Source of the DNA: an uncultured Gammaproteobacteria bacterium
GTDB taxonomy: Bacteria > Pseudomonadota > Gammaproteobacteria > UBA9214
Reading direction: 5' to 3'
Length of the DNA stretch: 64,000 bases
Assembly: GCA_963773065.1 (NCBI GenBank)
Contig: CAVYZN010000021.1
Location: 9,110 to 73,109, forward strand
This document shows, piece after piece, positions 6,493 through 62,685 of this stretch. The translations under genes and the position numbers were made by a program. Under the pieces are notes generated by a model. It did no database searches. It worked only from the letters and a program-made list of their open reading frames with translations, and was not told the origin of the DNA. Numbering within the stretch: position 1 is the first letter of the stretch; every line of letters starts with the position of its first letter.

Positions 6493-6622
6493 TGTCCGTC
6501 CATAAAGAAATAAACTCACCGCAAAGGCGCGAAGAACGCAAAGCCGTTTAATTGTTTTTGTTAATATGTCTTCTTCGCGAACTTTGCGTCTTTGCGGTGA
6601 AAATGGTGTTTATGGATGGACG
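6493..6622 (-). repeat. Palindromic MITE-like repeat, copy 2 (complete, terminal inverted repeats)
   Basis: TGTCCGTCCATAAA ... TTTATGGATGGACG termini plus internal CACCGCAAAG...CTTTGCGGTG arms. Confidence 0.85.
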
Positions 6623-6651
6623 TAGTGACACGATATGGTTGGATTGTGGCG

Positions 6652-39925: not shown

Positions 39926-41841
39926 GTGAATAAAGAGATGGATGGGATCAAGGAGAAAATTTATCTGGACTTGCTCCATGGCGAGAGAATACCGCAGGAC
40001 GGGCAGGCTGTTGCACCAGTTCATCCTCTGGAGGCAAATGCGAAAGTGGCTCGCGGACGACGGTCTCAGCTTCTGTCCACTAGACAGAAGCTAGCTTGGT
40101 TGATGCTTGGCGTGGTTTCCGGTGCACTGATCGTTATCGTGGCTTGGTGGCCTGAATTGAACGAATTGGCAGGTGGCGCAGGAGTCAAGGGGATGGTAAG
40201 CAGTTTGACGGAGCATCGACAGTCTGGCGAGCTACCGGCACAATCTTTCACGACAGAAGAAACCAGAGGAGATCTCAAACAGGGTGTCATATCCCGGCTG
40301 GAATTACTGCCACCCACGGCTGCTGGTATGGGGAACGACAGTACTTCGGCGGGCAAGGATAAAGACAAGTCCAGGAATACTACGAGCAGTACACTCCTTG
40401 CAAAATCAGACAACCTTCCTGTTACTACCCAAGTTCAGCCACATGAAACAATAAGTGATACTGACCCAGCAATGAGTGCAGTGCTAGAGGCGGAAGATAC
40501 CTTGGCGCGCTTGCAAAAACTGGCTGAGTTCGGAGATGCCAAGGCACAAAACATCCTTGGGGTGATGTACGCCACCGGCGATGGCGTGCCGAAGAATGCT
40601 GCCAAGGCAGCAGAGTGGTATCAGAAGGCGGCGGGGCAGGGAGATGCCAAGGCACAATACAACCTCGGAATAATGTACGCCACCGGCGATGGCGTGCCGA
40701 TGGACCATGGTAAAGCCATGGAATGGCTTCAGAAGGCAGCCGCGCAGGGAGATGCCAGCGCACAATTCAAACTCGGAGTGATGTACAGAAGCGGCGATGG
40801 CGTGCCGAAAAATGCCGCCAAGGCAGCAGAGTGGTTTGAGAAAGCGGCGGCGCAGGGAAATGCCGATGCACAACTCAACCTGGGGGTGATCGCCACCGAC
40901 GATGGCATGCCGAAGAATGCTACCAAGGCAGCAGAGGGGGATAAGAAGTCGGCGACGCAGGAAGATGCCAAGGCACAGCACAACCCCGGAATAATTATGC
41001 CACCGGTGATGGCGTGCCGTTGAACCCTGGTAAAGCCATGGAACGGCTTCAGACGGCAGCCGCGCAGGACGATGCCAGCGCACAGTTTAAACTCGGGTTG
41101 ATGTACAGAAGCGGCGAAGGCGTGCCGAAGAATGCCGCCAAGGCAGCAGAGTGGTTTGAGCAGGCGGCGGCGCAGGGAAATGTCAATGCACAGTTCAACC
41201 TCGGGGTAATGTACAGAAGCGGCGAAGGCGTGCCGAAGAATGCCGCCAAGGCAGCAGAGTGGTTTGAGCAGGCGGCGGCACAGGGAAATGTCAATGCACA
41301 GTACAACCTCGGGGTGATGTATGACACTGGCGATGGCGTGCCGATGGACTCTGCTAAAGCCATCGAATGGTTTCAGAAGGCAGCGGCGCAGGGAGATGCC
41401 AAGGCACAGAACAAAGTCGGAATAATGTATGCCACTGGCGATGGTGTGCCGATGGACCCTGCTAAAGCCATGGAATGGTTTCAGAGATCGGCGATGCAGG
41501 GATATTCAAACGCACAATTAAACCTCGGGATGATGTACGCCACCGGCGATGGCGTGCCGAAGAATGCTGCCAAGGCAGCAGCGTGGTTTCAGAAAGCGGC
41601 GGCGCAGGGAGATGCCGGCGCACAATTCAACCTCGGGGTGATGTACAGAATCGGCGAAGGCGTGTCGAAGGATTTGATATTAGCCTATGCATGGTTGAAT
41701 CTGGCTGCGATACAGGATATTGAGAATGCATCAAAAACACGTGACATGCTCGAATTGAATTCAGTCCAGCGTATAGAGGCGGAGCGTATGTCATCTAATT
41801 GGAAAACTGGGCAAGTGCTACAGCGGGATGGCGTGCCATAG
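39926..41841 (+). CDS. Membrane-anchored Sel1-repeat protein (11 repeats; frameshift near 40997)
   Basis: TM at about aa 55-75, then 36-aa AQxNLGxMYxxGxGVPK...A.EW..KAA.QG repeats across two ORFs. Confidence 0.88.
40535..41720 (+). repeat. 108-bp coding tandem repeats (Sel1)
   Basis: Repeated GGCGATGGCGTGCCGAAGAATGCYGCCAAGGCAGCAGAGTGG blocks at ~108-bp period. Confidence 0.9.
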
Positions 41842-42467: not shown

Positions 42468-43737
42468 TGAAGTGGTCCCCAAATTATGGACAGGGGGATA
42501 AGCTCTGACTTTCCGAAGAGAGGAAGGACGACGATGAGTCAGAAGCGCAAGCAATACCGAGCGGATTTCAAGGCCAAGGTAGCCTTGGAAGCCTTACGAG
42601 AGGACATGACCGTGGCCCAGCTTTCGCAGAAACACGGCATTCACCCCACCCTGATTAACCAATGGAAGCGGCAATTGCTGGAACACGCCCCTGCGGCCTT
42701 CGCCCGTGGGGAGTATAAGGACGACACGACGGCTGTCGTTGCCGAGCTCTACCGGCAGATCGGGCAGCTCAAGGTGGAATGCGATTTTTTAGCCGGCAGG
42801 CCCGGGATCAATCCCTTGCGAAGAGGCGTGCGATGATCGACCGGGCCTATTCCCCATTGAGCGTCGTGCGCCAGTGTGAACTGCTCGGCGTCAGCCGTGC
42901 GGGGCTGTATTACCAACCGGCGCGCGAGAGCGAAGAGAACCTGGCCCTGATGCGGCTGATTGACGAGCAATACCTCAAGACGCCGTTCTACGGCAGCCGT
43001 CAGATGAGGAACCACCTTGTGCGGCTGGGATATAAGGTCAACCGCAAGCGGGTGCAACGGCTGATGGCGCTCATGGGATTGCAGGCGGTGGCGCCGGGAC
43101 CACACACCAGCCTCCCGCATCCGCAGCACAAGGTTTATCCGTACCGCTTGCGTGGCATGACCATCGACCGCCCCAACCAGGTCTGGGCCACGGACATCAC
43201 CTATATCCCGATGGCCAAGGGCTTCATGTATCTCATTGCGGTGATGGACTGGGCGACCCGCAAAGTGTATGTCCTGGCGGGTCTCCAATACCCAGGACAC
43301 GACCTTCTGCGTCGAGGCGTTGAAGGAAGCCTTGCTCAACTACCGCAAACCGGAGATCTTCAACACCGACCAGGGCAGCCAGTTCACGAGTAGCGAGTTC
43401 ACTGGTCTGCTCATGACCTGGGGTGTTGAGATCAGCATGGACGGTCGCGGGCGCTGCCACGATAACATTTTCGTGGAGCGTCTTTGGCGCACGGTGAAGT
43501 ACGAGTGTATCCACCTCAACGCCTTTGAAGACGGTCGCTGCCTGCGGGAGGTGCTGGGGTAGCTACTTCGACTGGTATAACCAGGAGAGACCCCACACGG
43601 CGCTAGGAGGCGAAAGCCCGGATACCCTATACTTTGGCAAACAGGAAAACCAACCCCTGGCAGCCTGAGCCAGACAACAACCATGAGTCAGAGCTTATTC
43701 CACCTCCCAGGCTGTCCAAAGGATGGGGTCCACTTCA
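42468..43737 (+). mobile_element. IS3-family insertion sequence (orfA 42534-42836; orfB frameshifted)
   Basis: TG...CA ends TGAAGTGGTCCCC / GGGGTCCACTTCA, CCC duplication; orfA HTH, orfB WATDITYIP, NTDQGSQF, DNIFVERLWRTVKYE. Confidence 0.93.
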
Positions 43738-44037
43738 CCCATTAGCATCATCGCGCGATTACGGTTGTGCCTTTCGTTGTGATTACCCGCTTTGCCGCGA
43801 CACGGGCGAGCGCTGCCTCCCGAGCCACCCCGGCAGGCACCACTGCGTTTTCCCTATCGCTGTGCTCTGAACTTTCCACCGTTGCGCTTCACCAAACAGT
43901 GTGACTGGGTTGTGTTCGCAGAGCGCGAACATCCGCTGATCGAATCGCGATCGCAGTCACTGCCCCGGTTGGCAGGACAAGTTTTAATTTATTTAATTTC
44001 AGTTGGTTGAAATTTCTTCAGGCGGAACGGACCGGAT

Positions 44038-44053
44038 TGGCACGGCTTCTGCT
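44038..44053 (+). promoter_or_regulatory. Sigma54 -24/-12 promoter of peptide gene 1
   Basis: TGGCACGGCTTCTGCT (GG-N10-GC); AT-rich IHF-like tract at ~43981-44010. Confidence 0.8.
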
Positions 44054-44131
44054 CTTTACCAGTCATGAGTGCCGAGGCGCTCATGACCCAAACCCACAAC
44101 CTTTGACAACGTTAGACTTAGGAGAACTACC

Positions 44132-44377
44132 ATGATGACGATTAAAGATCTTTCCGTAAGCAAGGAACTCGACCGTAAGGCCATGACCGAAGTGCGTGGC
44201 GGTGGCGATGTCTTCTCGACCAATGCCCAGGGTTCATCCCAGAGCGCAGTCGGTGGCCTGGTGGCAGTCAACGAGAGCACCCAGAACCTGTTCTCTGCCA
44301 ACAGCGCCGTCGACTATACGGATATCCAGAAGACGCTGGTTGCGATCGGCCAGAACAACGGCCTCGGGATATTCTAA
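44132..44377 (+). CDS. Double-glycine leader peptide precursor 1 (81 aa)
   Basis: AGGAG RBS; leader IKDLSVSKELDRKAMTEVRGG; N/Q/S/G-rich core; own terminator. Confidence 0.85.
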   Translation: MMTIKDLSVSKELDRKAMTEVRGGGDVFSTNAQGSSQSAVGGLVAVNESTQNLFSANSAVDYTDIQKTLVAIGQNNGLGIF

Positions 44378-44434
44378 CCGAAGAGAGGCAGCGATCCGCA
44401 GCGATTCGCGGATCCTTACCTCGCAGCACGCCAG

Positions 44435-44464
44435 AGCGGAGGTCTTCGGACCTCCGCTTTTTTT
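44435..44464 (+). terminator. Rho-independent terminator
   Basis: AGCGGAGGTC-TTCG-GACCTCCGCT plus T-tract. Confidence 0.9.
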
Positions 44465-44759
44465 GTTGTCGGTCGCGAACGTCGGGGTCTCAGGACCGGG
44501 ATCAGCAGTAGTCTCGCCGGCGCTGAGTACGACGACTGGCCGGTGGTCTCCTCGGCGCAGGCGCTCGGGTCATCCCCGTCCAAGAGCTTGTCCTCCCGGC
44601 TGTCGCATGAGGACGAACTCCTCCTCCCGCGCTGTTGGCTACGGAACGACTCGAAGACCGGGGACGGCCGCCCATGGCATGGATGCGCGACGGGCAGAAC
44701 AATAAAATAGTATTTTTATTCAGCACCCTGTGTCGCACGACTCTGCACCGCGTGCGACT

Positions 44760-44775
44760 TGGCACGGCGCCTGCA
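44760..44775 (+). promoter_or_regulatory. Sigma54 -24/-12 promoter of peptide gene 2
   Basis: TGGCACGGCGCCTGCA (GG-N10-GC); AT-rich tract at 44699-44722. Confidence 0.8.
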
Positions 44776-44874
44776 CTCATCCCAGCGAGTCCTGACACGC
44801 TCAGCGACCGGGTGCAACCAACCCAACCGTTACCGACACCTGTTCCATTTATCATTGACTAAAGGAGATTCGAT

Positions 44875-45111
44875 ATGACCAATCTGTTGATTAATGACCT
44901 CATAGTGAGCCAAGAGCTGGATCACGGCGCCATGCTGGCCGTGCGCGGCGGCACTGATCTGACCTCGTTCAACGCCCAGGCGCTGGCCGCCGAGGCCAAG
45001 GGGGGGATTGCGGCCATCACCGCCGCGACCCAAACCCTGGTGAGCCTGAATACCTCGCTCAACCTGGAAATTTCCCCGCAGACCAATGTCGTTCTGGGGG
45101 GCGTTGCCTAA
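44875..45111 (+). CDS. Double-glycine leader peptide precursor 2 (78 aa)
   Basis: AAGGAG RBS; leader INDLIVSQELDHGAMLAVRGG; core aligns with precursor 1. Confidence 0.85.
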   Translation: MTNLLINDLIVSQELDHGAMLAVRGGTDLTSFNAQALAAEAKGGIAAITAATQTLVSLNTSLNLEISPQTNVVLGGVA

Positions 45112-45163
45112 GGGATACGTCCACGCGCCGGGTGGACCGGAGCGTCACCGTGCGCTAACCACC

Positions 45164-45193
45164 AGCGGAGGTCTTCGAACCTCCGCTTTTTTT
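45164..45193 (+). terminator. Rho-independent terminator, near-identical to 44435
   Basis: AGCGGAGGTCTTCGAACCTCCGCT plus T-tract. Confidence 0.88.
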
Positions 45194-45447
45194 GGGCATC
45201 CGCAGGGCATGGGGTGGGGGGCCGGTCGGCCGAGCCGGCGGCCAACCGGGGATGAGTTGCTAGTGTTTTCCCGATAGTTGTGCGCTAGCCGTAGCTACCC
45301 CTTGAGTGCTCCTATGCTTTCCGATGATCCAGTCGTAAAGGATATCTTACGGTTATGACCTGCCGGTCGCCGCGCTGATAATCAGATATCAAAAATCGGC
45401 TCGCGTTTATTGCTGCCCCTAAGCTCCGGCGTTATAAACGACAACTC

Positions 45448-46178
45448 TTGGCCGAAACTTGCCGTTCGGACACTGTAGCTGAAAGTAAAACGATAAAAAG
45501 CTGGTTCGACTCGTTTGAACAAGGAAAGCCAGTTTCCCTAAAAAGTATTGTGCAAACTCCTGCACGCATAAATAGCCGGTTGGGTCGTGCTAAAGGAAAA
45601 ATTGATGCGATCTACTCGCACCTTGGGCTCATCAATGTGGACCTAGAGTTGGCGACAAATTTAGGGGGCGCTACGCTTGCTCAGGCGAAGAAAAATTTCA
45701 CTACAGTGCATCGCCGCTTGGTAAATGGACTCTCAGAGTTTGCGGAGAACGAATATGACCTCGTCCTGATTGACTGTCCGCCGAATTTCAATATCGTGAC
45801 GAAGACAGCGATCACTGCCAGCGATTTCTTGCTGGTCCCTGCTAGGCCCGACTACCTCTCGACGTTGGGCATTGAATACCTGATTAGGAACGTGAAGGCA
45901 TTGGTAAAGGACTACAACGATTTTACGGAACTCGGTCAAGGAGAGAAGGTTGATCCCATAAGACCGAAGCTGCTTGGCGTTGTATTCACAATGATTCAGG
46001 AATACGGCGGTGGCCCAATGGCGGCACAGAGAGCTTTTATGGGCCAGCATCAAACTGCGGGCCTTTCCATATTTGACGCCTACATCAAACGAAACGACAC
46101 GTTGTTTGCCGACGCGCCCCAATACGGGGTGCCAGTAGTGCTCAACAGATATGCCTCAGACACTCATCAAAGTGTTGA
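45448..46178 (+). pseudogene. ParA/Soj-family ATPase fragment (no Walker A, C-terminus cut)
   Basis: SHLGLINVDLELA, YDLVLIDCPPNFN, PDYLSTLG; KGGVGKT absent; lower GC. Confidence 0.75.
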
Positions 46179-47657
46179 CCCGATCAATTGCGACAGATGA
46201 GGGAATGGTGCCAGACAAATGGCCATGTCGTGGCCGTGGACTACGTGGAAGCCGGCGCGTCCGCCACCGATGACCGGCGACCCGTATTTCAGCAGATGAT
46301 CGCCGAGGCGACGGGCAAGCCCTCGCCCTTCGAAGCTGTCATCGTGCACAGTCTTTCCCGCTTTTTCCGCGACTCCCTGGAATTTGGCCTCTACGAGCGC
46401 AAGCTCAACAAGTCCGGGGGCAAGCTCATCTCCATCACCCAGCAGACCAGCGATGATTCGGCCGGGGAGATGGCGCGCAAAATCTTCAGCGTGTTCGATG
46501 AATACCAGAGTAAGGAAAACGGTAAGCACACCCTGCGGGCCATGAAGGAAAACGCACGGCGGGGCTTCTTCAACGGCTCACGTCCTCCCTTTGGTTATCG
46601 CGTTCAGGAAACCGAGGCCCTGGGCAATCGTGGCAAGCGCAAGAAACACCTGGCGATTGACGCGGGCGAGGCGGCGACCGTGCAGCGGGTCTTCGATCTC
46701 TATCTCAACAGTTACCTGGGCGCGAAAGCCATCACGAGCAAACTAAATGACCAAGGCACTACCTACCGGGGCACCAAATGGACCCGCACCAAGGTGCATG
46801 AGGTGCTTTCCAACCGTGCCTACATTGGCGAGTTACCCTTCAATCGCAGGGACCACAAGACCGGCAAGGTGAAGCCGGAGTCCGAGTGGATCACAATCGC
46901 GGTGCCGCCTATCGTGGATGCGGCTGTGTTTGACGCGGTATCGGCGCGCAAACACAGCTGCGCCCCAGCGGTTATCCCGCCTCGTGTCGTGGGCTCACCG
47001 ACCCTGTTGACCGGCCTGCTTAAATGCGGTCACTGTGGGTCAGGCATGACGCTCGCCACCGGCAAGGGCTGACGCTATCGCTACTACAAGTGCAATACCC
47101 GAATAGGCAAAGGGAATCATCTGTGCGACTGTCCGACCGTCCCCATGGAGAAGCTCGACCAACTGGTTCTTGACGCCTTAGCCGAGAAAGTCTTCACGCC
47201 GGAACGGCTGCGCGTGCTGCTTCGAGAACTCAAGGCAAGGGTCAAGGCAGCGCAGAACGAAAATGCCGGTCAGCTCGGTGCCCTGAAAAAAGAGCTTGAA
47301 GCACTACAGACAACCACAGAGCGGCTTTATGATGCGGTGGAGAAGGGCATCCTTCCCCTGAATGCCTCACTGCAAGATCGCGCCCACAAATTACAGGCAA
47401 GGCGACAGGACATTCTGACGGAGATGGCGGGCTACAAACGTCAGCAAGCCATGCCCTTGAGCAACCTGACACCCAAACAGGTGAGCGCCTTCAGTGCCGC
47501 CATGCGTTCCAGGCTGCACGACCGGGGAAGCAACTTCGGGAAAGAGTACCTGCGCCTGTTCGTCAACCGGATCAAGCTGACTGGCCATCAGGTTGAAATC
47601 AATGGCAGCTATGGCCCATTGGCGCAGGGGATAGCCCAAATGAAACGGGCGCCCTAG
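46179..47657 (+). pseudogene. Large serine recombinase, N-terminally truncated, with in-frame TGA at 47070
   Basis: PDQLRQ, GASATDDRRP, HSLSRFFR, PPFGY, CGHC...YYKC zinc ribbon, coiled coil; catalytic YxRVS motif missing. Confidence 0.85.
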
Positions 47658-48564: not shown

Positions 48565-49756
48565 TCAGGTGGACAATGCTTTGGTTAACCGGTTCAATGC
48601 CGCTTTCAAGGTATCCAGGTCTGTGGCGAAGGAAAGTCGCAGATAACCCGGCGCACCAAAGGCGGTACCGGGAACCAGGGCAACGCCCGCCTTGTCCAGC
48701 AGGTATTCCGCGAGTTCAACGTCATCAGCTATCCCGTCAAGTTTGTCAATGATCGCCTGGAAATATGGGAAACAGTAGAAGGTGCCATCCGCGGGCAGGC
48801 AGACAACGCCGGGTATCCTGTTTAGTGCCTCCACCACGAAATCATGGCGCTGCTTGAAAGCCTTCACCATGGGTTGAACGCAGGACTGGTCGCCATCCAG
48901 CGCGGCCTGTGCGGCCACCTGCGAAATCGAGGTCGGGTTCGAAGTGCTTTGTGACTGAACCTTCTTCATGGCCTTGATCAGTTCGGCCGGGCCACCGGCA
49001 TAGCCGATGCGCCAGCCGGTCATGGCATAGACCTTCGATACCCCGTTCAACACGATCGTGCGCCCGTAGAGTTCCGGGCAGGGGTTGAGGATATTGCAGA
49101 ACGGCTCCTTGCTCCACAGGATGTGTTCATACATGTCATCGGTGGCGATCAGCAGCTGCGGGTGGTGTTTCAGTACGGCACCCAGCGCCTTGAGTTCCGT
49201 CCGTGTGTAGGCAACGCCGGTCGGGTTGGACGGGCTGTTGATGACAAACAGGCGGGTCTTTGGGGTAATGGCCGCATCCAGTTGCTCCGGTAGGATCTTG
49301 AAACCGGCTTCAACACCCGCGCGGATGATAACCGGTTCCCCGTCAGCCAGGCGGACCATGTCCGGGTAGGATACCCAGTAGGGCGCCGGGATGATGACCT
49401 CATCGCCGGGAGTTGAGCAGCGCCTGAACCAGGTTGAAGAAACTCTGTTTACAGCCACAGGAGACGAGGATTTGCTCTGGCCGGTATTCCAAGCCGTTAT
49501 CGCGCCTGAATTTCGCTATAATCGCCCGCTTGAGATCAGCGGTTCCATCAACGGCCGTATAACGTGTGAATCCGGCATGGATAGCCTCGATGGCCGCGGC
49601 CCTGATGTGTTCGGGTGTATCGAAATCCGGTTCACCGGCCCCGAGCCCGATGATGTCCTTGCCAGCCGCCCGCAGCTCGGCAACGCGTGCCGTCACGGCA
49701 AGGGTAGGGGAGGGTTTGATGCGTTGTACCCGGTTTGCAAGCCTGATCTTGTCCAA
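48565..49756 (-). CDS. aspC: Class I PLP-dependent (aspartate) aminotransferase; frameshift near 49410
   Basis: RIKPSPTL, GAGEPDFDTP, NSPSNPTG, DDMYEH, SKVYAMTGWRIGY. Confidence 0.88.
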
Positions 49757-49828
49757 AATTGCTATCCTGTCTTCTGAGGGTGCGCGAGCGCCAATCATAC
49801 TTAAACTCAACTGATCCGATAATAGTCC

Positions 49829-51841
49829 ATGGCCGGGGAATTCCAACTGACATCCGCGATGCAGCCCTCCGGCGACCAGCCCCAGGCCATTGCGGCGCTG
49901 GTCGAGGGTTTGAATGACGGCCTGGCGCACCAGACTCTGCTCGGTGTGACCGGTTCGGGCAAGACCTTTACCATCGCCAACGTCATTCAGGCGGTACAGA
50001 GACCGGCCATCATACTCGCGCCCAACAAGACGCTGGCCGCCCAGTTGTACGGGGAAATGCGCGTGCTGTTTCCGCACAATGCCGTTGAATACTTCGTCTC
50101 CTACTACGACTACTACCAGCCCGAGGCCTACGTGCCGGCCTCGGATACCTACATCGAGAAGGACGCCTCGATCAACGAACATATCGAGCAGATGCGCCTC
50201 TCGGCGACCAAGGCGCTGCTGGAGCGGTCCGATACGATCATCGTCGCCACCGTGTCTTCCATCTATGGACTCGGTGACCCGCGCTCCTATCTGAGCATGG
50301 TGCTGCACCTGGTGCGCGGGGAGATGGCGGACCAGCGTGCCATACTGCGGCGTCTGGCTGAGTTGCAGTACACGCGCAACGACGTCGAACTGCACCGCGC
50401 CACCTACCGGGTGCGGGGAGAGATTATCGATATCTTTCCGGCGGAGTCCGACGGCGAGGCCATACGCGTGGAACTCTTCGACGACCAGATCGATTCCCTC
50501 GCCTGGTTCGATCCACTGACCGGCGCGCTGCTGCGGCAGGCGCCACGGCTGACGATCTATCCCAAAACCCACTACGCCACTCCGCGCCAGGTGGTCCTTA
50601 ACGCCATCGACCAGATCAAGGTGGATCTGAAACAGCGCCTTGAAGAACTGCGCCAATCCAACAAGCTGGTGGAAGCGCAGCGGCTGGAGCAGCGCACCCT
50701 GTTCGATCTCGAAATGATGTCGGAACTGGGCTACTGCACGGGGATCGAGAACTACTCACGCTATCTGTCGGGTCGCCAGGCTGGCGAGCCGCCCCCAACG
50801 CTGTTTGATTACCTCCCTGCCAATGCGCTGCTGGTCATCGATGAGTCCCACGTCACCATCCCCCAACTGGGCGGGATGTACCGGGGTGACCGCTCGCGCA
50901 AGGAAAACCTGGTGGAATATGGGTTTCGTCTGCCCTCGGCGCTCGATAACCGGCCGCTGCGCTTTGATGAATTCGAACGCCTGGCGCCGCAGACCCTGTT
51001 CACCTCGGCCACGCCCGGGCACTACGAGGAAGAACACGCGGATGCCGTGGTGGAACTGCTGGTGCGCCCGACCGGCCTGGTGGACCCGGAACTCGAGGTG
51101 CGTCCGGCCGCGGCCCAGGTCGATGACCTGCTGTCGGAGATACGACTGCGGGTAGCGGAGGGTGACCGCGTACTGGTAACGACACTGACGAAACGCATGT
51201 CCGAGGATCTCACCGAATACCTGGCCGAACACGGCGTACGGGTGCGTTATCTGCACTCCGACATCGATACGGTGGAACGGATGGAGATCATTCGCGACCT
51301 GCGCTTGGGGAAATTTGATGTGCTGGTCGGCATCAACCTGTTGCGCGAAGGGTTGGATATCCCGGAGGTCTCGCTGGTCGCTATCCTGGATGCCGACAAG
51401 GAGGGATTCCTGCGTTCCGAGCGGTCACTGATACAGACCATCGGGCGCGCGGCCCGCAACCTGCATGGCAAGGCCATCCTCTATGCAGACCAGATCACCG
51501 GATCGATGCACCGCGCCATCGACGAAACCGAACGCCGGCGCGAGAAGCAGCAAGCCTATAACCGTGCTCACGGGATCACGCCACGGGGCATCGAAAAGGC
51601 GGTTACCGACGTGATGGAAGGTGCCATCGGCAAGGAACACGCCAGCGCGCGGGAATATGCCCAGGTGGCCGAGGAGGTCGCCCGTTACGGCCGACTCAAC
51701 CCGGAGCAACTGGCCAGGGAGGTTGGCAGGCTGGAACGGCAGATGTACGAGCACGCCCGCAACCTTGAATTCGAAGAGGCAGCGCGGCTGCGTGATGAAA
51801 TCCGTCGCATGGAGGAGCGAAATCTTGGCCTGACCGCCTAA
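49829..51841 (+). CDS. uvrB: Excinuclease ABC subunit B
   Basis: [29 protein letters not shown]-terminal UVR domain. Confidence 0.98.
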
Positions 51842-55203: not shown

Positions 55204-57618
55204 CTAAACCAAAGGCCGGTAGGGCATGATGGGTGGTCCGGAAATCCAAGCGGCGTCTCCCAACCACGGATCCGGCTTCAGATCCTCGTCGTAAGCCCGC
55301 AGGGGATGCCGGCTCGGGTCGAGGCGTTCGTCCGTATCCCAGGGTTCGAAGGCGTTGCTGACGTTGGCCAGACCGGTCTGGCCGAGTTCCGGATAATTGC
55401 GCAACAACACGGTTTTGAAAGTGGCGGTGTCGATCCAGTCTAGGCCCTCGCGGGTGTAAGTTTCCGCATTGTAATTATCCGTGTAAAAACGGTCCGCTTG
55501 CAGGCGGCGGGTCGCGTTCATGATGAAGATTTGAAACATGGTTTCGCCAAACCCGAAGTGCGTGGGTCGATGCCCCTCGGAAAGCGTGCCGATCATGAGG
55601 TCCAGGTTCTCGACGTCCCCGGGTTGATCGCCGTAAACTTCTTTGAGCTTTTGCACCTGAGCCGGGTCGTCGGTCAGGTCGTCGAAGGAGCGGATCGGGT
55701 TCAAGCCCAGTTGCCGTCGAAACTCGTTATAACGGGGCACGCCGCGCTCGCGCGCCCGCAGGATGTCCACCGCCCCCATGTCAAAGAGAGGATTGCCCGG
55801 GATGCTCAACTCCTGCATAAACCGCGGGAAATTGTTGAGGACAAGTTGCCCCGGGTGCTGCCGACCGAAGGACGAGAGGAGGTCCGCGATGCCGAACTTG
55901 GCGGTGACCTTGGCCGAGCCGGCCTGGCGGGTGGCGGGGAGCGGAATTTCCTCGCTCGTCTCAGTCCCAATTTTCCTGAGGATGAGCGTTTCCGGGAGCA
56001 GGGAGTGGAGCCGGTAAACTTCGGTGAACTCCTCGGTCAATCCAAAGGGCTGACGGTGTTTATCGATGGGATTGCCGACCACACCTCCCATCTCCGGGTT
56101 CTTGATGTTGATGGTCGCGAGCGTCTTCCGGTCTTTGCCGTAATCGAAGAGGTTGGTCAAGATGCCGAACCAATTGGCGTTCAACGCGGCGTTGAGCCCC
56201 GGGTTGGGAAGAATGGCCGGCGTCCATTCCACCGTGTGGATCTTGGCCATGACGGCGGCGTTGATCAGGCGGGCGACATTAAACAGCCGATTGTCGTCCC
56301 ATTGGGGGTAAGACATCATGAGGCGATCGCAAATGGAATTGTGTTCCCGGACGAACAGCGTGTGCAGAATGGTCAGTCCCACCCACCAGTTCCGATTGAA
56401 CCCGGTCTCCTCGATGCCTTGCTTGTCGAGGGGCAAGGTTCCGTCCGGGTTCAGGCGCAGTTTCCCAGCGACGAAGCGGCGCAAGCGGTGTTGGGTTTTG
56501 AGATCGCTACCATAAATCTGGGATCCATCCCACCAGTGCGTGACCTCGTTAATGAAGGTGATAGGAGTGTTTTCCTGGCCGGCCAGGTAAGTCGGATCCG
56601 GCTGGGTCTTACCCACGAACATGCTGGACTGGCGGTAGATGGCCCGGGCCGGATCGTCGGGGGCCAGCGGGATTTCATGCACGTCCCGATAGAGGATTTC
56701 CCCGTGGTTGATCCAGTCGTGGGTCTCGAATTGAATCCAGGCCGCGGCCAGTAAATTGAGAAACGGGACCTCCTTCATGGGCCCTTCCCGACTCAACAGT
56801 TTCCGGCTGATCTCCCGGGGGTTGGGCGTCATCAGTTTCTCGCCGGTCTCGGGCCGGATCGCCTCGATCTCGACGTTGCGCAGGAAACGCGTGCCGGCGG
56901 CGCCTTCCTTCGGGTTGGCCAGGTTGTTCCAACTCCCGTCCGCCGTTCGAAAATGGGTCACTCCTGGCGGCGCTTTTTGGCCGGGTTCCTGGAAGCCGGT
57001 CAAGGTTCCGGGCGGGTAGGTGTTCATGAGGTTCATCTTGTTGAGCCGCTCGCGCATATAAGCCAGGGTCAGAATGCTCAAGGTCAAGGATCGCCGATAC
57101 CAATTGGTCCAGACCCGGTCCTTGTATCCGGCCACCGCGCCCAAGACGGACGTGGCCACGTTGACGAATAAGGTAATGACCGCTCCGATGGCGTTCCCGA
57201 TGGCTTGGCGCGCCCGTTCCGGCCAAAGCTTGCGCCGGGGACGCGGAGGGACGGGCAAGACGTCAGGAATCCGCGCGGCGGATTGGATCAAGGTTTGGCG
57301 GTCGAAGTAATAAACAGGCGGGACCGGCACCTGGATTTCGGCGCTGGCGTTGGCTTGTGCCCTGGCCAACATCTCGCGCCACTCGGCTCGATCCGGATGC
57401 AGCGCCAGCGCCGCCGCGTAACTCCGGACGGCGCCCTCGTAATCCTCCCGTTGAAAACAGGCCAACCCCATCAATGCCTGGCTTTGGCCGCTCGGATCGC
57501 ATCGGACGGGTTCGTGGAGGATCTCGATGGCGGCCTCGAAGTTTCTTTGCTCGAGAAGACGGGAACCTTCATCACGCGCGGATTCCCATCCATTGGCCTG
57601 AGGTGAGTTGGGGTGCAT
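55204..57618 (-). CDS. TPR-fused animal heme peroxidase family enzyme, alpha-dioxygenase-like
   Basis: RTADGSWN, QFETHDW, THWWDGSQIYG, AKIHTVEWTPA, EEFTEVYRLHSLLP, RERGVPRYNEFRR, RRLQADRF. Confidence 0.9.
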   Translation of the reverse strand: MHPNSPQANGWESARDEGSRLLEQRNFEAAIEILHEPVRCDPSGQSQALMGLACFQREDYEGAVRSYAAALALHPDRAEWREMLARAQANASAEIQVPVPPVYYFDRQTLIQSAARIPDVLPVPPRPRRKLWPERARQAIGNAIGAVITLFVNVATSVLGAVAGYKDRVWTNWYRRSLTLSILTLAYMRERLNKMNLMNTYPPGTLTGFQEPGQKAPPGVTHFRTADGSWNNLANPKEGAAGTRFLRNVEIEAIRPETGEKLMTPNPREISRKLLSREGPMKEVPFLNLLAAAWIQFETHDWINHGEILYRDVHEIPLAPDDPARAIYRQSSMFVGKTQPDPTYLAGQENTPITFINEVTHWWDGSQIYGSDLKTQHRLRRFVAGKLRLNPDGTLPLDKQGIEETGFNRNWWVGLTILHTLFVREHNSICDRLMMSYPQWDDNRLFNVARLINAAVMAKIHTVEWTPAILPNPGLNAALNANWFGILTNLFDYGKDRKTLATINIKNPEMGGVVGNPIDKHRQPFGLTEEFTEVYRLHSLLPETLILRKIGTETSEEIPLPATRQAGSAKVTAKFGIADLLSSFGRQHPGQLVLNNFPRFMQELSIPGNPLFDMGAVDILRARERGVPRYNEFRRQLGLNPIRSFDDLTDDPAQVQKLKEVYGDQPGDVENLDLMIGTLSEGHRPTHFGFGETMFQIFIMNATRRLQADRFYTDNYNAETYTREGLDWIDTATFKTVLLRNYPELGQTGLANVSNAFEPWDTDERLDPSRHPLRAYDEDLKPDPWLGDAAWISGPPIMPYRPLV

Positions 57619-57928
57619 GGTAAAGTGCCTTTCTTGCTTGGGTTATCCAAGGCGGAGTGGTTGGGGGAGATAGTATTCGGCAAAGACAATGCAAATCAAT
57701 TCTGGCGTCTCCACTACCGGTCCGGTCGATTCCAAACGACCGGTTACCTTGTATCCTTGCACCGCGGAAGCTCTTAATCAGTCAGAGCCTTACTAGGAAG
57801 CCCGCCGGCGGTATACCCTCTTGCCTGCGCCAGTCATTTGCTCATGATTGGCGCAGGGCAGGTCGGCGCGGCTCATTCGGGATGTTGATCACGATACCCA
57901 CGGACATCAGACATCAGAGGAAAAGTCG

Positions 57929-59944
57929 ATGAATGACGCAGGAGATGGCATCACCCGGCGCGGTTTCGCCAAGTTGTGCTTGAACGCCGCTATCACCCTG
58001 ACTGCCTTTCTGGGCGGTTGTGCGAGCTATCTACGGTCTCGACCGCCAGTGACCTGTGAATCCGAGCAACCAGGCGCGACCGAAGAATACGACTATATCG
58101 TGGTGGGATCCGGTGCCGGTGGTGGACCTTTGGCCGCCAACTTGGCCCGCAAGGGCCATAAGGTCTTGCTGGTGGAGGCGGGCGGCGCTGAGGAAAACGC
58201 GAATTATCGCATTCCGCTGTTTCATCCCTTGGCGTCGGAAGACCCGGCGTTTCGCTGGGATTTTTTCGTCAGGCATTTCAAGGACTATGCCCTTTCCCGC
58301 AAGGACGACAAATTCTGCCCGGAATACGACGGGGTGTTTTACCCGAGATGCAGCACCCTGGGCGGTTGCACGGCGCACAATGCGATGATCCTGATTTATC
58401 CCCACAACGAAGACTGGGATTATATTGCCGAACTCACCGGGGACCCCTCATGGCGCAGTGAGCGCATGCGGGAATACTTCGAGCGCCTGGAAAACTGCCA
58501 GTACGCTAACGCTAGCGGCGATAGCGGGGCTCGCCACGGCTTCGCCGGCTGGCTGCCAACCAGTTTGCCGCCGCTGGATACCGTGCTCGGCGCCATCCGC
58601 GACCGGCAGTTGCGCGACGTGCTGCAGGGTAGCGTGCTGACGGCGCTGCAGCAGCATATTGGAAAACCGCTGGAACTCCTGAAAACCCGCTTCGACCCCA
58701 ACGATTGGCGCAGCGTTAAATCGCGCAGCGAGGGCTTATGTAAAATGCCGTTGACCACTTATCGGGGCAAACGGGCGGGCGCCCGGGAATACATACTGGA
58801 GGTGGAGCGCCGATGTGGGGGACGGCTGACGGTGAAACTGAACACCTTGGTCACGCGGGTCATTCTGGCGGATGCAGAGCCGTCCGGCGACCGGCCCTCG
58901 CGCAAGATCGCCGTCGGCATCGAATATCGAGAGGGTAAACGGCTCTATCGGGCGGATCGCCAACCCTCGCATGCGCTCGCCTCGAGTGAGGGTTCTATCC
59001 GGGCGCGCCGCGAAGTGATCCTCTCCGGCGGCGCATTCAATACACCTCAACTGTTGATGTTGTCGGGGATAGGGCCGAAACAGCATCTGCAGGATCTGGG
59101 CATTCCCGTCCAGGTGGATCTGCCCGGAGTCGGTGAGAACCTGCAGGATCGCTATGAAGTCGCCGTGGTCACGGAGATGAAAAAAGAGTTCTCCGTGCTC
59201 CAGGGCATGAGTTTCACGATTCCGCAGCCGTGGGAAGCGCCCAATCCGTTTTACCAGCAATGGCTGAAAGGCGAGGGCGTGTTCACGACCAACGGTACGG
59301 TCATATCGTTCATCAAGAAATCGACGCCGCAGCAGCCGAATCCCGATCTGTTCGTTTTCGGCATGCCCGGGTATTTCGCCGGCTATGTTCCGGGTTACTC
59401 GAAGCGGATCGCGGAGGATCATAAACATTTCACCTGGGCGATACTCAAGGCCCACACCAACAATGCGGCCGGGGTGGTGCGGCTCAAATCCACCGATCCC
59501 TGTGAAAGGCCGTATATCAATTTTCATTATTTCGACGAAGGCAACGACTATCGGGGAGAAGACTTGGACGGTTTGGTGCACGGCATAGAGTTCGTGCGCG
59601 CTATCACCGCAAGCGAAGGCATGCGCGAGCATATCGCACGCGAGGTGATACCGGGCGCGGCGGTGCGCAGTCCTACGCAGATCGAGGCGTTCGCCAAGTT
59701 CAACGCCTGGGGCCATCACGCGTCCTGCAGTTGCAGGATGGGGGCTCAGGATGATGCGATGGCGGTGGTGGACAGCCGCTTCCGGGTACGCCATGTCGAC
59801 AATCTTCGCATTGTCGACGCGTCGATTTTTCCGCGTATTCCGGGATTTTTCATCGTCAGCGCCGTTTACATGGTCAGCGAGAAGGCCACCGATACCATTC
59901 ATGAAGACTCCTCCGCATCAGCGCGCCGTATTAGCGCTGGCTGA
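57929..59944 (+). CDS. GMC-family FAD oxidoreductase with Tat/lipoprotein signal
   Basis: TRRGF...LGGC; [48 protein letters not shown]. Confidence 0.92.
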
Positions 59945-60002
59945 ACGCCGAGCGAGCGGGCAGACCGGTTGATCGATTAACAGGAGATGGAAATATTTAT
60001 CA

Positions 60003-60031
60003 TTGACATGCGAAAAACCCGAGAGTAGCGT
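60003..60031 (+). promoter_or_regulatory. Sigma70 promoter candidate for the cytochrome c gene
   Basis: TTGACA-17 nt-TAGCGT. Confidence 0.55.
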
Positions 60032-60129
60032 CACGTTCGTCACGATAGGCGCTCTTCGTGTCGATCCGCTTTTTATTCCGCTTCAGCGTTTCGATTTCGG
60101 GCTGGTGGCTTAAGGATAGGAGTAGCCGC

Positions 60130-62685
60130 ATGAAAGCAAGAAACCTGCTGATCGCCGCGTCGTTTTCATCCGCATTTTTGTTGGCGGTGACGGGATGTCA
60201 CTTCGAACGCAAACTCGACGAGAAGGTCGTCGACATCATCAACCCGATCCGACCCGGTTGCGGTCACGGAGCGGGCACGGTCATGGACGAGGCCCTATGC
60301 GCCGGCCGAACGGCGGACAGTCTTCCCGCCGCCGACGAGGATTACTTCCGTGACATGGATTACGGTGCGACGAAGAATCCGGCGGCCATTGCCGCCGCGC
60401 TCGACCCCTATATTCCGGGCATAACGCCGGAACAGGCGGTAGCCGCCGCGGTGAAGGGGCGAAACAATTGGATCGTTTGGACGGGCGGGAACGATCGCTT
60501 TTGGGATCTGTTATCGCGCGATAGCGTTGGCAACCTGGATTTCCTGAAGACCCTGTCCAACCATCCCAGCCTGAAATACAGTCGAGACAACCGCTGGCAA
60601 TACCTCGGCCTGGTCAACGAACCCTGCTTCGACAAAGCGACCGGACCGCGTGCTGACCGCTTCGGCTTGTGGCTGGACGTGCGCAATGCCGACTGCCCGC
60701 CCGACCCGTTCGAAAATGAGCGGAAATACCCCGGCGTGAGGATCGGATCACGCGGCAAAACCATGCCGGAGGGTTCCTATTATGGCTATGCCACGGGCAT
60801 CGTCGGCCTGCGTCTGTTCCCGAATCCCGATTTCGACGACGCGGCCGCCAAGCGGTGGGATCCGGTGCGCTATTACACCGAACCCGGCTATTACAACGAC
60901 AAGAAGCTAGTCAAGCCGTACCGGGTCGGCATGAGCTGCGGATTCTGTCATGTCGGTCCCAATCCCGCCAACCCGCCGAAGGATCCTGAACATCCCAAAT
61001 GGGAAAATCTGAACTCCAATCCGGGGGCGCAATATTTCTGGGTGGACCGCATTTTCATGGCGGATATCGATTCAAGCAGTTTCGCATACCAACTGTTTCA
61101 CACGTCTCATCCCGGCGCATTGGATACCTCCTTCGTGTCCAGTGACTACATCAACAACCCCAGAACCATGAATGCGGTCTACAACCTGGGGGCTCGCATG
61201 AGCATGGCGTTGAAGCTGGGTCGCGAGACGCTGGGCGGGGGCGAATTGGACAACGCCCAGTTGAACCAGTTCGTACCGCCCAATTCTCCGCTGAATAAGT
61301 TTTTCAAGGCGCCGGATACCACCTGGACGCCCCGCGTGTTGAAAGACGGCTCAGACTCGGTAGGTGCTCTGGGAGCGCTCAACCGGGTGTACGTCAATAT
61401 CGGACTGTTTAGCGAAGAGTGGCTACAGCATTTCATCCCGCTGGTCGGCGGCAAGGAAATCACGCCGTTTCCGATTGCCGCTGCCGACAGGAACTCCGCC
61501 TACTGGAACGCCACCAAGGCGCAAACACCGGACCTCGCACTGTTCTTTCTCGCCACCGGCAAGCCGGATTATCTGAAGAACGCGCCGGGCGGTGAACGCT
61601 ATCTCAGCAAGGACGAGAAAACGCTGAACCGCGGCAAGGTGGTATTCGCAGAAAACTGCGCCCGCTGCCATTCCAGCAAACTCCCGGAAAAAGCGTTCTC
61701 GTTCTTTCCCAACGACGGCTGCGTCGGCCCGGACTATCTCGGTTGCTGGAATCGGTATTGGGTCTGGACCAAGACCGCCGAGTTCAAGAACGCAGCCAAG
61801 CAGATCGTCTTGGCCAAGGATTTTCTCGCCAACAATTTCCTGTCCACCGATCTGCGGGTACCGGTCACGCTGCTGGAAACCAACGCGTGCAGCGCGCTGG
61901 CCACCAATGCGTTGCAGGGTAACATTTGGGATAACTTCTCGTCCCAGTCCTACAAGGACTTGCCGTCCGTTGGCAAGGTGATCGTTCACCACCCGCTCAC
62001 CGGCGAACCTCGCGAATACGAAATGCCGGCAGGCGGACGCGGTTATACGCGGCCAGCGTCTCTGATCAGCCTCTGGTCCAGCGCGCCGTTTCTGCAGAAT
62101 AACCGTCTCGGAAGCTTTTACTGGAGCGGCTCCGTCGAGGATCGCATGAGATCTTTCGACGATTCCATCGAGCAATTGCTGTGGCCGGAAAGAAGGCAGG
62201 GCGAACGGCGGTTCACGACGCGTTCCGGCAAGTCAGTACCCGGCCATATCGATCTGACCACGGCGACCAGTTATCTGAAGGTACCGAAAGGCTTTTTACC
62301 GGATTATCTGCAACGGGAACCCTTGTTCGGAATGATGACGATCGCCGCATCAGGGGCTGTGGGCGAGACCGGTATCGAGATCGGTCCGATACCGGAAGGC
62401 ACACCGATCAATCTCATTTCCAATATCGACCTGGAACAGCGGGGCAAGGTTTTCGATGTGTTGCTGAAGGCCAAGCGCGACTTTAAGTCGCTGCCGCAGA
62501 ATGCCGGCGATGCAGAGGCAAGATGGGTGCTTTCGGATCTGGTGGAACCCCTGCTTTCCGTCAGCAAATGTCCGGACTTCGTCGTGAACCGCGGCCATTA
62601 TTTCGGAACCGGTTATGCACAGGACGAGCCGGGTCTGAACGATACGGACAAAAGGGCGCTGATCGAGTTCCTCAAGACCCTGTAG
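60130..62685 (+). CDS. Large di-heme cytochrome c lipoprotein (RoxA/cytochrome c peroxidase-like)
   Basis: Lipobox VTGC; CGFCH and CARCH; RPASLISLWSSAPFLQN; GHYFG; DKRALIEFLKTL. Confidence 0.85.
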   Translation: MKARNLLIAASFSSAFLLAVTGCHFERKLDEKVVDIINPIRPGCGHGAGTVMDEALCAGRTADSLPAADEDYFRDMDYGATKNPAAIAAALDPYIPGITPEQAVAAAVKGRNNWIVWTGGNDRFWDLLSRDSVGNLDFLKTLSNHPSLKYSRDNRWQYLGLVNEPCFDKATGPRADRFGLWLDVRNADCPPDPFENERKYPGVRIGSRGKTMPEGSYYGYATGIVGLRLFPNPDFDDAAAKRWDPVRYYTEPGYYNDKKLVKPYRVGMSCGFCHVGPNPANPPKDPEHPKWENLNSNPGAQYFWVDRIFMADIDSSSFAYQLFHTSHPGALDTSFVSSDYINNPRTMNAVYNLGARMSMALKLGRETLGGGELDNAQLNQFVPPNSPLNKFFKAPDTTWTPRVLKDGSDSVGALGALNRVYVNIGLFSEEWLQHFIPLVGGKEITPFPIAAADRNSAYWNATKAQTPDLALFFLATGKPDYLKNAPGGERYLSKDEKTLNRGKVVFAENCARCHSSKLPEKAFSFFPNDGCVGPDYLGCWNRYWVWTKTAEFKNAAKQIVLAKDFLANNFLSTDLRVPVTLLETNACSALATNALQGNIWDNFSSQSYKDLPSVGKVIVHHPLTGEPREYEMPAGGRGYTRPASLISLWSSAPFLQNNRLGSFYWSGSVEDRMRSFDDSIEQLLWPERRQGERRFTTRSGKSVPGHIDLTTATSYLKVPKGFLPDYLQREPLFGMMTIAASGAVGETGIEIGPIPEGTPINLISNIDLEQRGKVFDVLLKAKRDFKSLPQNAGDAEARWVLSDLVEPLLSVSKCPDFVVNRGHYFGTGYAQDEPGLNDTDKRALIEFLKTL

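Follow-up and report, generated by a model that had tools for sequence, protein, structure and literature searches.

Sigma-54-type cassettes for double-glycine leader peptides in an uncultured gammaproteobacterium and the export and kinase genes that accompany their relatives

Two peptide cassettes and their transcription signals

A 64-kb stretch of DNA from an uncultured gammaproteobacterium, referred to here as the window (the whole stretch that was analyzed, at its full length), carries in its examined part, 43700-45500, two open reading frames (ORFs) on the same strand, A and B, which encode small peptides with double-glycine leaders and which are each arranged as a separate cassette with a promoter and a terminator. 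ORF A (44132-44377, plus strand, 81 aa) consists of a 24-aa leader (MMTIKDLSVSKELDRKAMTEVRGG, 44132-44203, ending in RGG) and a 57-aa core (44204-44374), and ORF B (44875-45111, plus strand, 78 aa) of a 26-aa leader (MTNLLINDLIVSQELDHGAMLAVRGG, 44875-44952) and a 52-aa core (44953-45108). The two products are paralogous (31/72 residues identical, 43%, BLASTP E 2e-17), and the junction residues RGG|G in A and RGG|T in B place Gly-Gly at positions -2/-1 directly before the core. As read from the translations, both cores lack Cys and have the motif D-x2-S-x-NAQ in common. An earlier note on this DNA, made from the sequence alone, had described two paralogous ORFs of about 80 aa with the leader pattern I-x-DL-x-VS-x-ELD-x2-AM-x2-VRGG and Cys-free cores of 57 and 52 aa, and the translations agree with it in each of these respects.

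Both ORFs are preceded, at 80-100 nt, by the sigma-54 promoter motif TGGCAC-N5-CTGC: TGGCACGGCTTCTGC at 44038-44052 for A (plus strand; GG at 44039-40, GC at 44051-52) and TGGCACGGCGCCTGC at 44760-44774 for B (plus strand; found by motif scan and recurrent in relatives). The canonical sigma-54 element, with GG at -24 and GC at -12, is TGGCAC-N5-TTGC. The pattern TGGCAC-N6-TGC occurs three times in the 64-kb window, two of them at A and B, against an expectation of 0.96, and 4 of 100 shuffled sequences reach three occurrences. A promoter scan found no sigma-70-like promoter upstream of ORF A or ORF B, and rpoN is present in the genome from which the window comes, on contig C23. The Shine-Dalgarno sequence AGGAG lies 7 nt before each ATG (44120-44124 for A, where it is kept in the upstream alignment, and 44863-44867 for B, both on the plus strand), and each cassette ends in an intrinsic terminator on the plus strand, identified by a terminator scan at 44433-44466 for A (fold z -4.7) and at 45164-45193 for B (fold z -2.5); the two terminators are 97% identical over 31 nt. 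The sigma-54 promoters, strong ribosome sites and nearly identical terminators ascribed to both units in the earlier note were thus recovered.

Around the A promoter, three further elements were identified, of which the first two are given without strand. An inverted repeat, TGTTCGC-N5-GCGAACA (43913-43931), about 125 nt upstream of the -24 element, is a putative activator site of cassette A. A relaxed form of this repeat lies upstream of 37 of the 124 sigma-54 motif sites that were compared, against a background expectation of 0.011 per segment, and its distance to TGGCAC is 120-129 nt in 36 of these 37 occurrences. Between the putative activator site and the promoter there is an AT-rich tract (43980-44018), the position of which is kept in A-type cassettes; its TCA-N5-TTG core at 43997-44009 resembles an IHF site, and in the A-type upstream alignment the tract holds a TCAA-N4-TTR-like core. 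The third element, TCATGAG...CTCATGA at 44062-44087 (plus strand, 11 bp), is located in the 5' untranslated region (UTR), at the predicted start of the A transcript, which falls some 12 nt after the GC at 44051-52, where the stem begins. It folds at -20.1 kcal/mol (z -3.5; 2 of 200 shuffles fold equally well) and is kept in A-type cassettes, where it is followed by the conserved sequence CCAAACCC and then AGGAG. As the element TCATGAG-N9-CTCATGA is both a DNA palindrome and an RNA hairpin, and its arms are invariant without covariation, an operator is as possible as a stabilizing 5' stem-loop. For B, the 5' UTR folds no better than shuffled sequences (z -0.15). The element TGTTGGCTACGGAACGACTCGAA at 44633-44655 (no strand assigned), which does not form a clean palindrome and is kept in the B cassettes of the window's genome (G000) and of loci L013 and L015, is a candidate activator site of B, and an AT-rich tract seen in the sequence and the upstream alignment precedes the B promoter at 44697-44722. 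The span 43981-45193 first given for the two cassettes therefore stands in its right-hand part, whereas cassette A starts before 43981, since the inverted repeat at 43913-43931 belongs to it.

The same promoter, leader and terminator build recurs in relatives. In a first set of loci, 58 of 91 leader ORFs have TGGCA[CT]-N5-NTGC in the 260 nt before them, at a distance of 80-125 nt, against a background of 71 such motifs in 772.7 kb (all loci together, both strands counted); in an independent set of metagenome contigs, the motif precedes 40 of 47 leader ORFs, and 6 of the 7 ORFs without it belong to one peptide type, D, described below. The cassette features are far beyond chance, and A and B are very probably real sigma-54 genes. 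The block from promoter to leader and the terminator show 80-100% DNA identity between genomes even where the cores are unrelated. The terminator hairpin, AGCGGAGGTCTTCGGACCTCCGC-T7 (window 44426-44466 and 45164-45194), is 97-100% identical among A, B and C cassettes across genomes (loci compared: L013, L045, L046, L049, L055, L061, L065 and L066), a degree of conservation that exceeds what a terminator needs and that may reflect concerted evolution or a second function. At the edges of another locus, a 192-aa secreted protein without a known family (L015:1126-1893) and an MlaC-family protein (L015:13112-14171) have sigma-54 motifs before their genes as well, so that the sigma-54 regulon may be wider than the peptides.

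The peptide family, its arrays and the copies in the window's genome

A word-indexed search returned 46 homologues, all of them unnamed or called 'hypothetical protein', and a profile search over 1.84 billion representatives yielded 315 clusters at E<=1e-3, 31 of them at E<=1e-10. In the alignment of the family the leader is almost invariant and the core variable, the 24-aa leader consensus being MLTIKDLSASKELDRKAMsEVRGG. Among 169 representative leaders of 24 aa, Gly-Gly occupies -2/-1 in all 169, V is the residue at -4 in 163, M or L that at -7 in 165 and L that at -12 in 166; double-glycine leaders in general have hydrophobic residues at -4, -7, -12 and -15. The family agrees with this pattern except at -15, where Ser prevails, and the double-glycine type assigned to A and B at the outset was supported. 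The cores have a median length of 58 aa and a median net charge of -2, and are rich in A, G, S, N, V, T, L and Q, with 0.4% Cys.

No curated model describes these peptides. At E<=10, A and B matched nothing in Pfam or NCBIfam except for one meaningless 12-bit hit, and PF10439 and the NCBIfam models of bacteriocin-type signals gave no match for either; the NHLP and Nif11 leader models did not match A or B, and the family profile had 0 matches at E<=10 in the PDB. One of 19 other family peptides matched PF10439 below its cut-off (15.3 bits vs 27.1). In the Atlas the peptides fall into unnamed clusters, and the nearest cluster with a Pfam family is that of cyanobacterial tandem bacteriocins, with a score of 0.87, which is below the reliable range and serves as a lead only. 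Full-text literature searches, the scope of which excluded subscription journals and supplements, found no published description of the system. By these sequence comparisons, A and B represent an undescribed proteobacterial peptide family without a curated model, as had been suspected. In the window's genome, a further small ORF (G000 C32:186622-186858, minus strand; L039) has a weaker leader match, LSRELDVSSMAEIRGG (E 0.0013), with an unrelated acidic core; it has no sigma-54 motif and is located near chromate-resistance genes.

A scan of one genome per species gave a set of 24 loci. Those from Gammaproteobacteria are in metagenome-assembled genomes that carry the label Chromatiales, Chromatiaceae, Sedimenticolaceae or Thiogranum or are unclassified, and the betaproteobacterial ones include the isolates Aromatoleum toluolicum T, A. 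diolicum 22Lin, Noviherbaspirillum pedocola DKR-6 and Pararobbsia silviterrae DHC34. A hidden Markov model (HMM) of the leader, as had been proposed for mapping the family, revealed tandem arrays of 2-8 leader-peptide genes per locus, and four core classes recur in them: A, the first type in the window; B, the second; C, with the core pattern G-W-I-R-P...N-N-Y...N-Q-x-Q, kept across both bacterial classes; and D, short, basic and Pro-rich, with a VIKDL leader, no Arg at -3 and, in every case seen, no sigma-54 motif. In Gammaproteobacteria the order is D-A(n)-B-C, as in L015 (D-A-A-B-C) and L026 (D-A-A-A-B'-C), and B-type orthologues come after A in L013, L015, L041, L043 and others. Within bounded arrays, such as those of L015, L026 and L045 (A-A-A-B), A is present in 2-5 often near-identical copies and B, C and D are single at most. 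The closest metagenome relative (L041, with an A 96% identical to that of the window) has D-A-B-C on one contig in 3.1 kb, and in Aromatoleum a single promoter serves the four genes, which make up one operon. The peptides are carried by 7 of 60 relatives, all of them in the window's own taxonomic family (7/36); of 400 other genomes sampled evenly from the phylum, one has a hit.

The window's own assembly comprises 33 contigs (90.9% complete, 6.3% contamination) and holds further parts of such a system. Contig C22 carries a GAF-PAS sigma-54 activator, two DUF4399 genes, a caspase-SH3-FGE fusion, a kinase, PP2C, D and A, and ends inside A. The core of the window A differs from that of the C22 A by dN 0.017 and dS 0.331 (dN/dS 0.05), which indicates strong purifying selection. 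Contig C8 carries a third A-B copy at its end. Over about 1.66 kb the identity of this copy is about 89%; its upstream context differs, the -24 GG is changed to CG, the leader has an insertion, and B contains frame breaks. As the metagenome contig L043 has this variant in intact form, the breaks may be real decay or indel errors, and the latter are possible since other genes of the assembly are broken as well: a class I/II aminotransferase in the window (48565-50656, minus strand) is split into two overlapping ORFs, either by a frameshift or by an indel error, which bears on the C8 copy.

The window copy is a true satellite of the main locus, given the unique DNA on both of its sides. It is flanked by an IS3-family transposase that ends at about 43737 and by ParA-like and serine-recombinase fragments from 45448 on, and in three further genomes (L016/L020, L028/L019/L027 and L014/L015) there are likewise satellites whose exporter is encoded on a different contig of that genome. 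The pair had first been taken for a two-peptide or two-subunit system; that idea is replaced here by a satellite A-B pair of a larger, four-class D-A(n)-B-C system, which we hold to be very likely. As for the flanking elements, the IS3-family transposase (HTH_21 and rve; 42779-43737) is split over two frames, its right end (43737) abuts the start of homology with the C8 copy of the A-B module, and ends of the same element are present on contigs C27 and C9. On the other side, at 45448-47072, a fragment of a ParA-like ATPase (AAA_31, shortened at the N-terminus) shares an overlap with a large serine recombinase, the resolvase domain of which begins at profile position 22; these fragments directly 3' of cassette B look like mobile-element remnants.

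Conserved neighbours and the proposed role of the peptides

Neither a C39 peptidase nor a sigma-54 activator is encoded among the 54 ORFs of the window (Pfam scan), and the partners had accordingly been expected in trans from the beginning. Conserved neighbours were identified by ORF clustering, Pfam and NCBIfam scans and tblastn over the 24 loci; as many loci are cut by contig ends, the counts are minima. An array locus spans about 20 kb, with an export arm on one flank and a kinase arm on the other. The export arm contains a sigma-54 activator of about 420 aa (13/24 loci), a peptidase-containing ABC transporter (PCAT) of about 1015 aa with two stretches binding cyclic nucleotide monophosphates (cNMP), a Peptidase_C39 domain and ABC membrane and ATPase domains (10/24), an HlyD adaptor (9/24), a PpiC-type protein without a signal peptide and with a weak likeness to TIGR04500 (9/24), and an FHA protein of about 744 aa with one membrane span and a large helical outer part (8/24). 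In L015, for example, the exporter has 1015 aa and the Pfam domains cNMP_binding (twice), Peptidase_C39, ABC_membrane and ABC_tran. The kinase arm contains PP2C (12/24), a membrane Ser/Thr kinase (7/24), an SH3 and FGE-sulfatase-like protein (7/24) and DUF4399 proteins (6/24). Activator, C39 exporter and HlyD are thus encoded beside the arrays of relatives, as the leader mapping was expected to reveal; the regulatory set of the earlier note, by contrast, was too small, as it held neither the Ser/Thr kinase, PP2C, FHA and FGE-like proteins nor the cNMP-binding domains of the exporter.

In the alignment with PCAT1, the C39 domain keeps the Gln, Cys, His and Asp positions, so the domain of the relatives should be an active protease. 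A strong match (E<1e-190) to the N-terminus of the cNMP-C39 PCAT occurs in 5 of 60 relatives, and these five are among the seven peptide carriers. An OEP gene is present in L030. No component passed the NCBIfam cut-offs for a specific system. PADLOC gave just generic kinase, caspase, cNMP and AAA+ domain matches, and hence no known defence system is indicated. Two neighbour clusters, 'c6' and 'c13', were rejected as antisense shadow ORFs of the activator and DUF4399 genes. A TIR-domain protein adjoins one betaproteobacterial locus (L033:7495-9669), and the SH3-FGE-like protein encoded in the window's genome (G000 C22; L037:13159-15309) has a caspase domain fused to it; TIR and caspase domains are usual in conflict or cell-suicide systems. 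The window itself encodes a Crp-family cNMP-binding regulator (6616-7296) and a CHASE2 adenylate/guanylate cyclase (11557-13812), and the latter could be a source of ligand for a cNMP-gated exporter.

A conserved leader before a variable core is also the build of precursors of peptides that are made by ribosomes and modified after translation (RiPPs), and it may be asked if the Ser/Thr-rich cores are altered before export by the kinase or the FGE-sulfatase-like protein. The kinase is weakly like lanthionine-synthetase kinase domains (83 bits vs a cut-off of 650), an FGE-like domain is at hand, and the PpiC protein is weakly like the 'peptide maturation' family TIGR04500 (82 bits vs 180). However, a scan of 21 neighbour proteins revealed no radical-SAM, YcaO, LanB/C/M, ATP-grasp or cyclase domain, 0.4% of the residues in the cores are Cys, the leaders of A and B match neither NHLP nor Nif11, and the kinase and the FGE-like protein are membrane-anchored and look like sensors. 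We consider modification of this kind very unlikely.

Combining these data, the best overall explanation, which we hold with a little less than even confidence, is that A and B are satellite sigma-54 genes for precursors that are exported by a PCAT and have structural cores. Each unit would comprise an activator site, an AT-rich bend site, a -24/-12 promoter, a 5' UTR hairpin, a ribosome site, an ORF and a terminator, and a dedicated enhancer-binding protein would act on the upstream repeat to start sigma-54 transcription of each cassette. The helical leader of 24-26 aa would dock in the C39 domain of the PCAT with two cNMP-binding domains and be cut after Gly-Gly, and the 57- and 52-aa cores would exit through PCAT, HlyD and an outer-membrane channel; cleavage at Gly-Gly and export by a PCAT are probable, judged from the leaders and from the exporters of relatives. 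The cNMP-binding domains may gate export, as proposed for HetC (PMC10986499), and the membrane Ser/Thr kinase, PP2C, FHA protein and FGE-sulfatase-like sensor may set its timing. Outside the cell, the peptides would act as bulk co-operating structural units of a beta-rich extracellular or surface assembly, with A as the major and B and C as minor components. This last step is the weakest and is proposed tentatively.

The same neighbourhood could serve cell-cell or developmental signals that leave through the gated PCAT, as is proposed for the substrate of HetC in Nostoc, and are perceived by the kinase arm. In its combination of cNMP-binding, C39 and ABC domains the exporter is built like HetC, and the conserved neighbours include a receptor-type Ser/Thr kinase, PP2C and an FHA protein; on the other hand, several amplified, strongly expressed copies and four classes of 50-80 residues exceed the need of a signal, and the cores differ widely between close lineages while the kinase is conserved. 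A signalling role as the main function is therefore considered improbable.

The choice of a structural role was made on several grounds: A is amplified as near-identical copies, with B, C and D single; the order of the classes is fixed across two bacterial classes; A and B diverge about as fast as the enzymes of the system (between G000 and L015, identity is 53% for A and 56-68% for the kinase, FGE and PP2C); each gene comes with a strong promoter and a terminator of its own; and a crude screen by hydropathy, which covered 844 ORFs in 39 arrays, yielded solely antisense shadows and locus-specific inserts and no membrane ORF of the immunity type that is conserved. The polar cores are a further point in favour, as is the structure predicted by AlphaFold2 for A from a 29-row alignment, in which the leader forms a helix (4-21), the core a beta-hairpin (27-40/46-59), and the C-terminus is disordered.

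The most serious competitor is a multi-peptide, microcin-like bacteriocin regulon with pheromone-type induction, in which A and B would be variable toxic payloads, the promoter-less D a secreted inducer sensed by the kinase arm and PCAT-HlyD the exporter, a logic that would resemble pneumococcal blp or class II loci of lactic acid bacteria, with a Ser/Thr kinase and sigma-54 as the new building parts. A double-glycine leader with a C39 PCAT and HlyD is the canonical export set of bacteriocins and microcins, the best NCBIfam likenesses are to bacteriocins and type I exporters (all below cut-off), one leader matches Bacteriocin_IIc below threshold (E 0.02), and the nearest Atlas cluster with a Pfam family, a lead only, points the same way. 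Leaders and flanks are conserved while cores are unrelated between lineages, RNA-library contigs diverge after a common leader, dN/dS of paralogues reaches 1.6, the distribution is patchy (7/36 genomes of the own family, 1/400 in the phylum), satellite copies lie beside IS and recombinase fragments, and D, having no sigma-54 motif, could be the inducer. Against toxic payloads stand the lack of a conserved immunity-like membrane ORF in the 39 arrays screened and in the compact A-B module, where neither 44378-44874 nor 45112-45450 holds a membrane-like ORF; near-identical A copies within arrays, which look like dosage and not diversity; four classes in fixed order that diverge about as fast as enzymes; and cores that are acidic and polar, without an evident amphipathic cationic or long hydrophobic segment. 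We regard the bacteriocin regulon as somewhat unlikely, and as less so than the signalling and modification alternatives.

A number of observations weigh against the structural reading or against one of its steps. In 133 of 169 leaders the residue at -15 is Ser, which is not hydrophobic. None of A, B and 19 further family peptides matches curlin or another amyloid or fibre family in Pfam, and internal repeats in the cores are not significant (52/300 shuffles score equally for A and 108/300 for B); a curlin-like reading of Q-x-G-N-x-A motifs in Chromatiales-type cores was rejected for want of Pfam support, and the 'amyloid-like' label of the earlier note is one of composition only. The model of A has only moderate confidence (mean pLDDT 62.6, about 70 in the hairpin), and that of type C (13 sequences, pLDDT 43.8) has no confident fold. 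In other lineages the cores of A and B are replaced by unrelated ones, with leader, promoter and terminator kept at the DNA level, and within-genome paralogues in other genomes give core dN/dS of 0.3-1.6, with small counts; their leaders are identical even at synonymous sites while the cores differ. Regarding expression, metatranscriptome contigs from two libraries of different studies fall on A (44079-44367 and 44163-44314) and on the 5' part of B (44821-44946), and two RNA-library contigs continue from the common leader into other cores; none lies on the promoter or spacer regions, which a DNA run covers. As RNA libraries can hold DNA, this signal is a weak hint, and parts of the stretch without RNA cover carry no evidential weight. 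A complex prediction for four copies of the A core scored 0.02 (mark 0.42), and having been run without controls it counts neither for nor against self-assembly. The sequencing runs carry small word shares (at most 0.20), and for this reason no claim on habitat or strain is made.

Export in the window's organism is likewise called into question by its own genome. The assembly contains no C39 domain and no counterparts of the HlyD, PpiC and FHA genes of the export arm, and a genome of the same genus (G001) also has no PCAT, so that export in this organism is inferred from relatives; the C39 exporter, the lack of which would have counted against the proposal of the earlier note, is thus absent from the own assembly and present in near homologues. 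On this basis, the pair could be an orphan relic, duplicated by a mobile element into an island and no longer processed since the exporter was lost. The position of the pair between an IS3-family transposase and ParA/recombinase fragments fits such a history, as do the altered -24 element, leader insertion and broken B frame of the C8 copy. But the promoters, frames and terminators of the window copy are intact, A is under strong purifying selection relative to the C22 copy, the C8 variant is intact in L043, and frame breaks elsewhere in the assembly, such as the split aminotransferase, leave indel errors possible. Moreover, the main array is cut right at the end of its contig, and the four neighbouring genes for export are missing as a group, which fits an assembly gap, and another genome of the same genus (G003) has a PCAT, on a short contig. 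Since repeated cassettes break contigs, an assembly gap is the most likely cause of the missing export arm, and a relic is most unlikely.

An extended form of the structural reading is speculative and, taken as a whole, rather doubtful. It describes a new Gram-negative extracellular material, in which peptides of about 55 aa, cut at Gly-Gly and exported in a single step by a nucleotide-gated PCAT, would form a beta-rich fibre or coat with A as the major and B and C as minor components; a constitutive D would serve as a secreted inducer, to which the kinase arm would respond by turning on the sigma-54 cassettes, and cores would be swapped by recombination between conserved flanks.

Two other regions of the window were recorded. 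Two adjacent Sel1-repeat proteins are encoded at 39926-41841 in internally repetitive DNA, with copies 75-87% identical at 108-nt steps in 40532-41672. The region 55204-62685 encodes an 804-aa animal-haem-peroxidase protein with TPR repeats, a 698-aa GMC oxidoreductase and a protein of 875 aa that matches cytochrome c weakly, a trio that is uncommon for a gammaproteobacterium.

Comparison with known systems

Export of double-glycine leader substrates by PCATs is textbook knowledge in Gram-positive bacteria and for enterobacterial microcins. To our knowledge, the PCAT substrates of environmental Proteobacteria are mostly unknown, and HetC is the one studied cNMP-gated PCAT. In the system described here, a gated PCAT adjoins its likely substrates, a sigma-54 activator and a kinase, phosphatase and FHA module, and the set is kept across two proteobacterial classes. 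As it is present in cultured Aromatoleum, Noviherbaspirillum and Pararobbsia, gating, leader recognition and the role of the peptides are directly testable. The modular cassette, with its conserved promoter and leader, variable core and conserved terminator, is a natural expression-and-secretion unit. If the structural role is true, the system would be a new secretion route to extracellular assembly; if an antagonistic role is true, it would be a new class of bacteriocins for which no immunity gene is evident.

The peptides resemble known PCAT substrates (class II bacteriocins, class II microcins and pheromones) in their short helical leader, which ends in Gly-Gly and has hydrophobic residues at -4, -7 and -12, and in the predicted catalytically intact C39-ABC exporter and HlyD beside the arrays of relatives. 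They differ in that no curated model is matched above threshold, each gene has its own sigma-54 unit, four peptide classes are conserved, a Ser/Thr kinase, PP2C and FHA protein would take the place of a two-component system, and the exporter has two cNMP-binding domains. Class II microcins and bacteriocins have a dedicated immunity gene beside the structural gene, whereas none was found in the crude screen of 39 arrays described above. Cyanobacterial tandem bacteriocins and prochlorosin-type arrays (PF28158) are alike in their tandem genes with a near-invariant leader and divergent cores, and unlike in that here there is no modifying enzyme, the cores lack Cys and the Atlas score of 0.87 is below the reliability mark. 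The words cyclic nucleotide, kinase, prolyl, tandem, HetC and sigma are absent from the text of PMC3140520.

HetC of Nostoc PCC 7120 combines a cNMP-binding domain, a C39 peptidase and an ABC transporter; its cNMP domain binds ppGpp and is needed for heterocyst differentiation, and HetC has no known substrate and no double-glycine leader gene nearby (PMC10986499). The exporter described here has the same domain architecture, and it differs in having likely substrates that are adjacent and numerous and in its two cNMP-binding stretches.

The presence of a membrane Ser/Thr kinase, PP2C and FHA protein beside a secretion machine is reminiscent of PpkA-PppA-Fha1, the threonine-phosphorylation control of type VI secretion, although the secretion system is a different one and the link here is by gene neighbourhood only. 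Functional amyloids and surface fibres with major and minor subunits include curli (CsgA/CsgB), Fap and chaplins. Small polar subunits rich in N, Q, S, T, G and A, an amplified major type with single-copy minor types and a predicted beta-hairpin are features in common with them, but neither a sequence relation nor a repeat was found, and the proposed one-step export by a PCAT contrasts with Sec and an outer-membrane pore; the likeness to these systems is one of composition and gene dosage only. In total, the underlying mechanism of double-glycine leader export by a PCAT is a known one, and the substrate family and its regulatory build are new.

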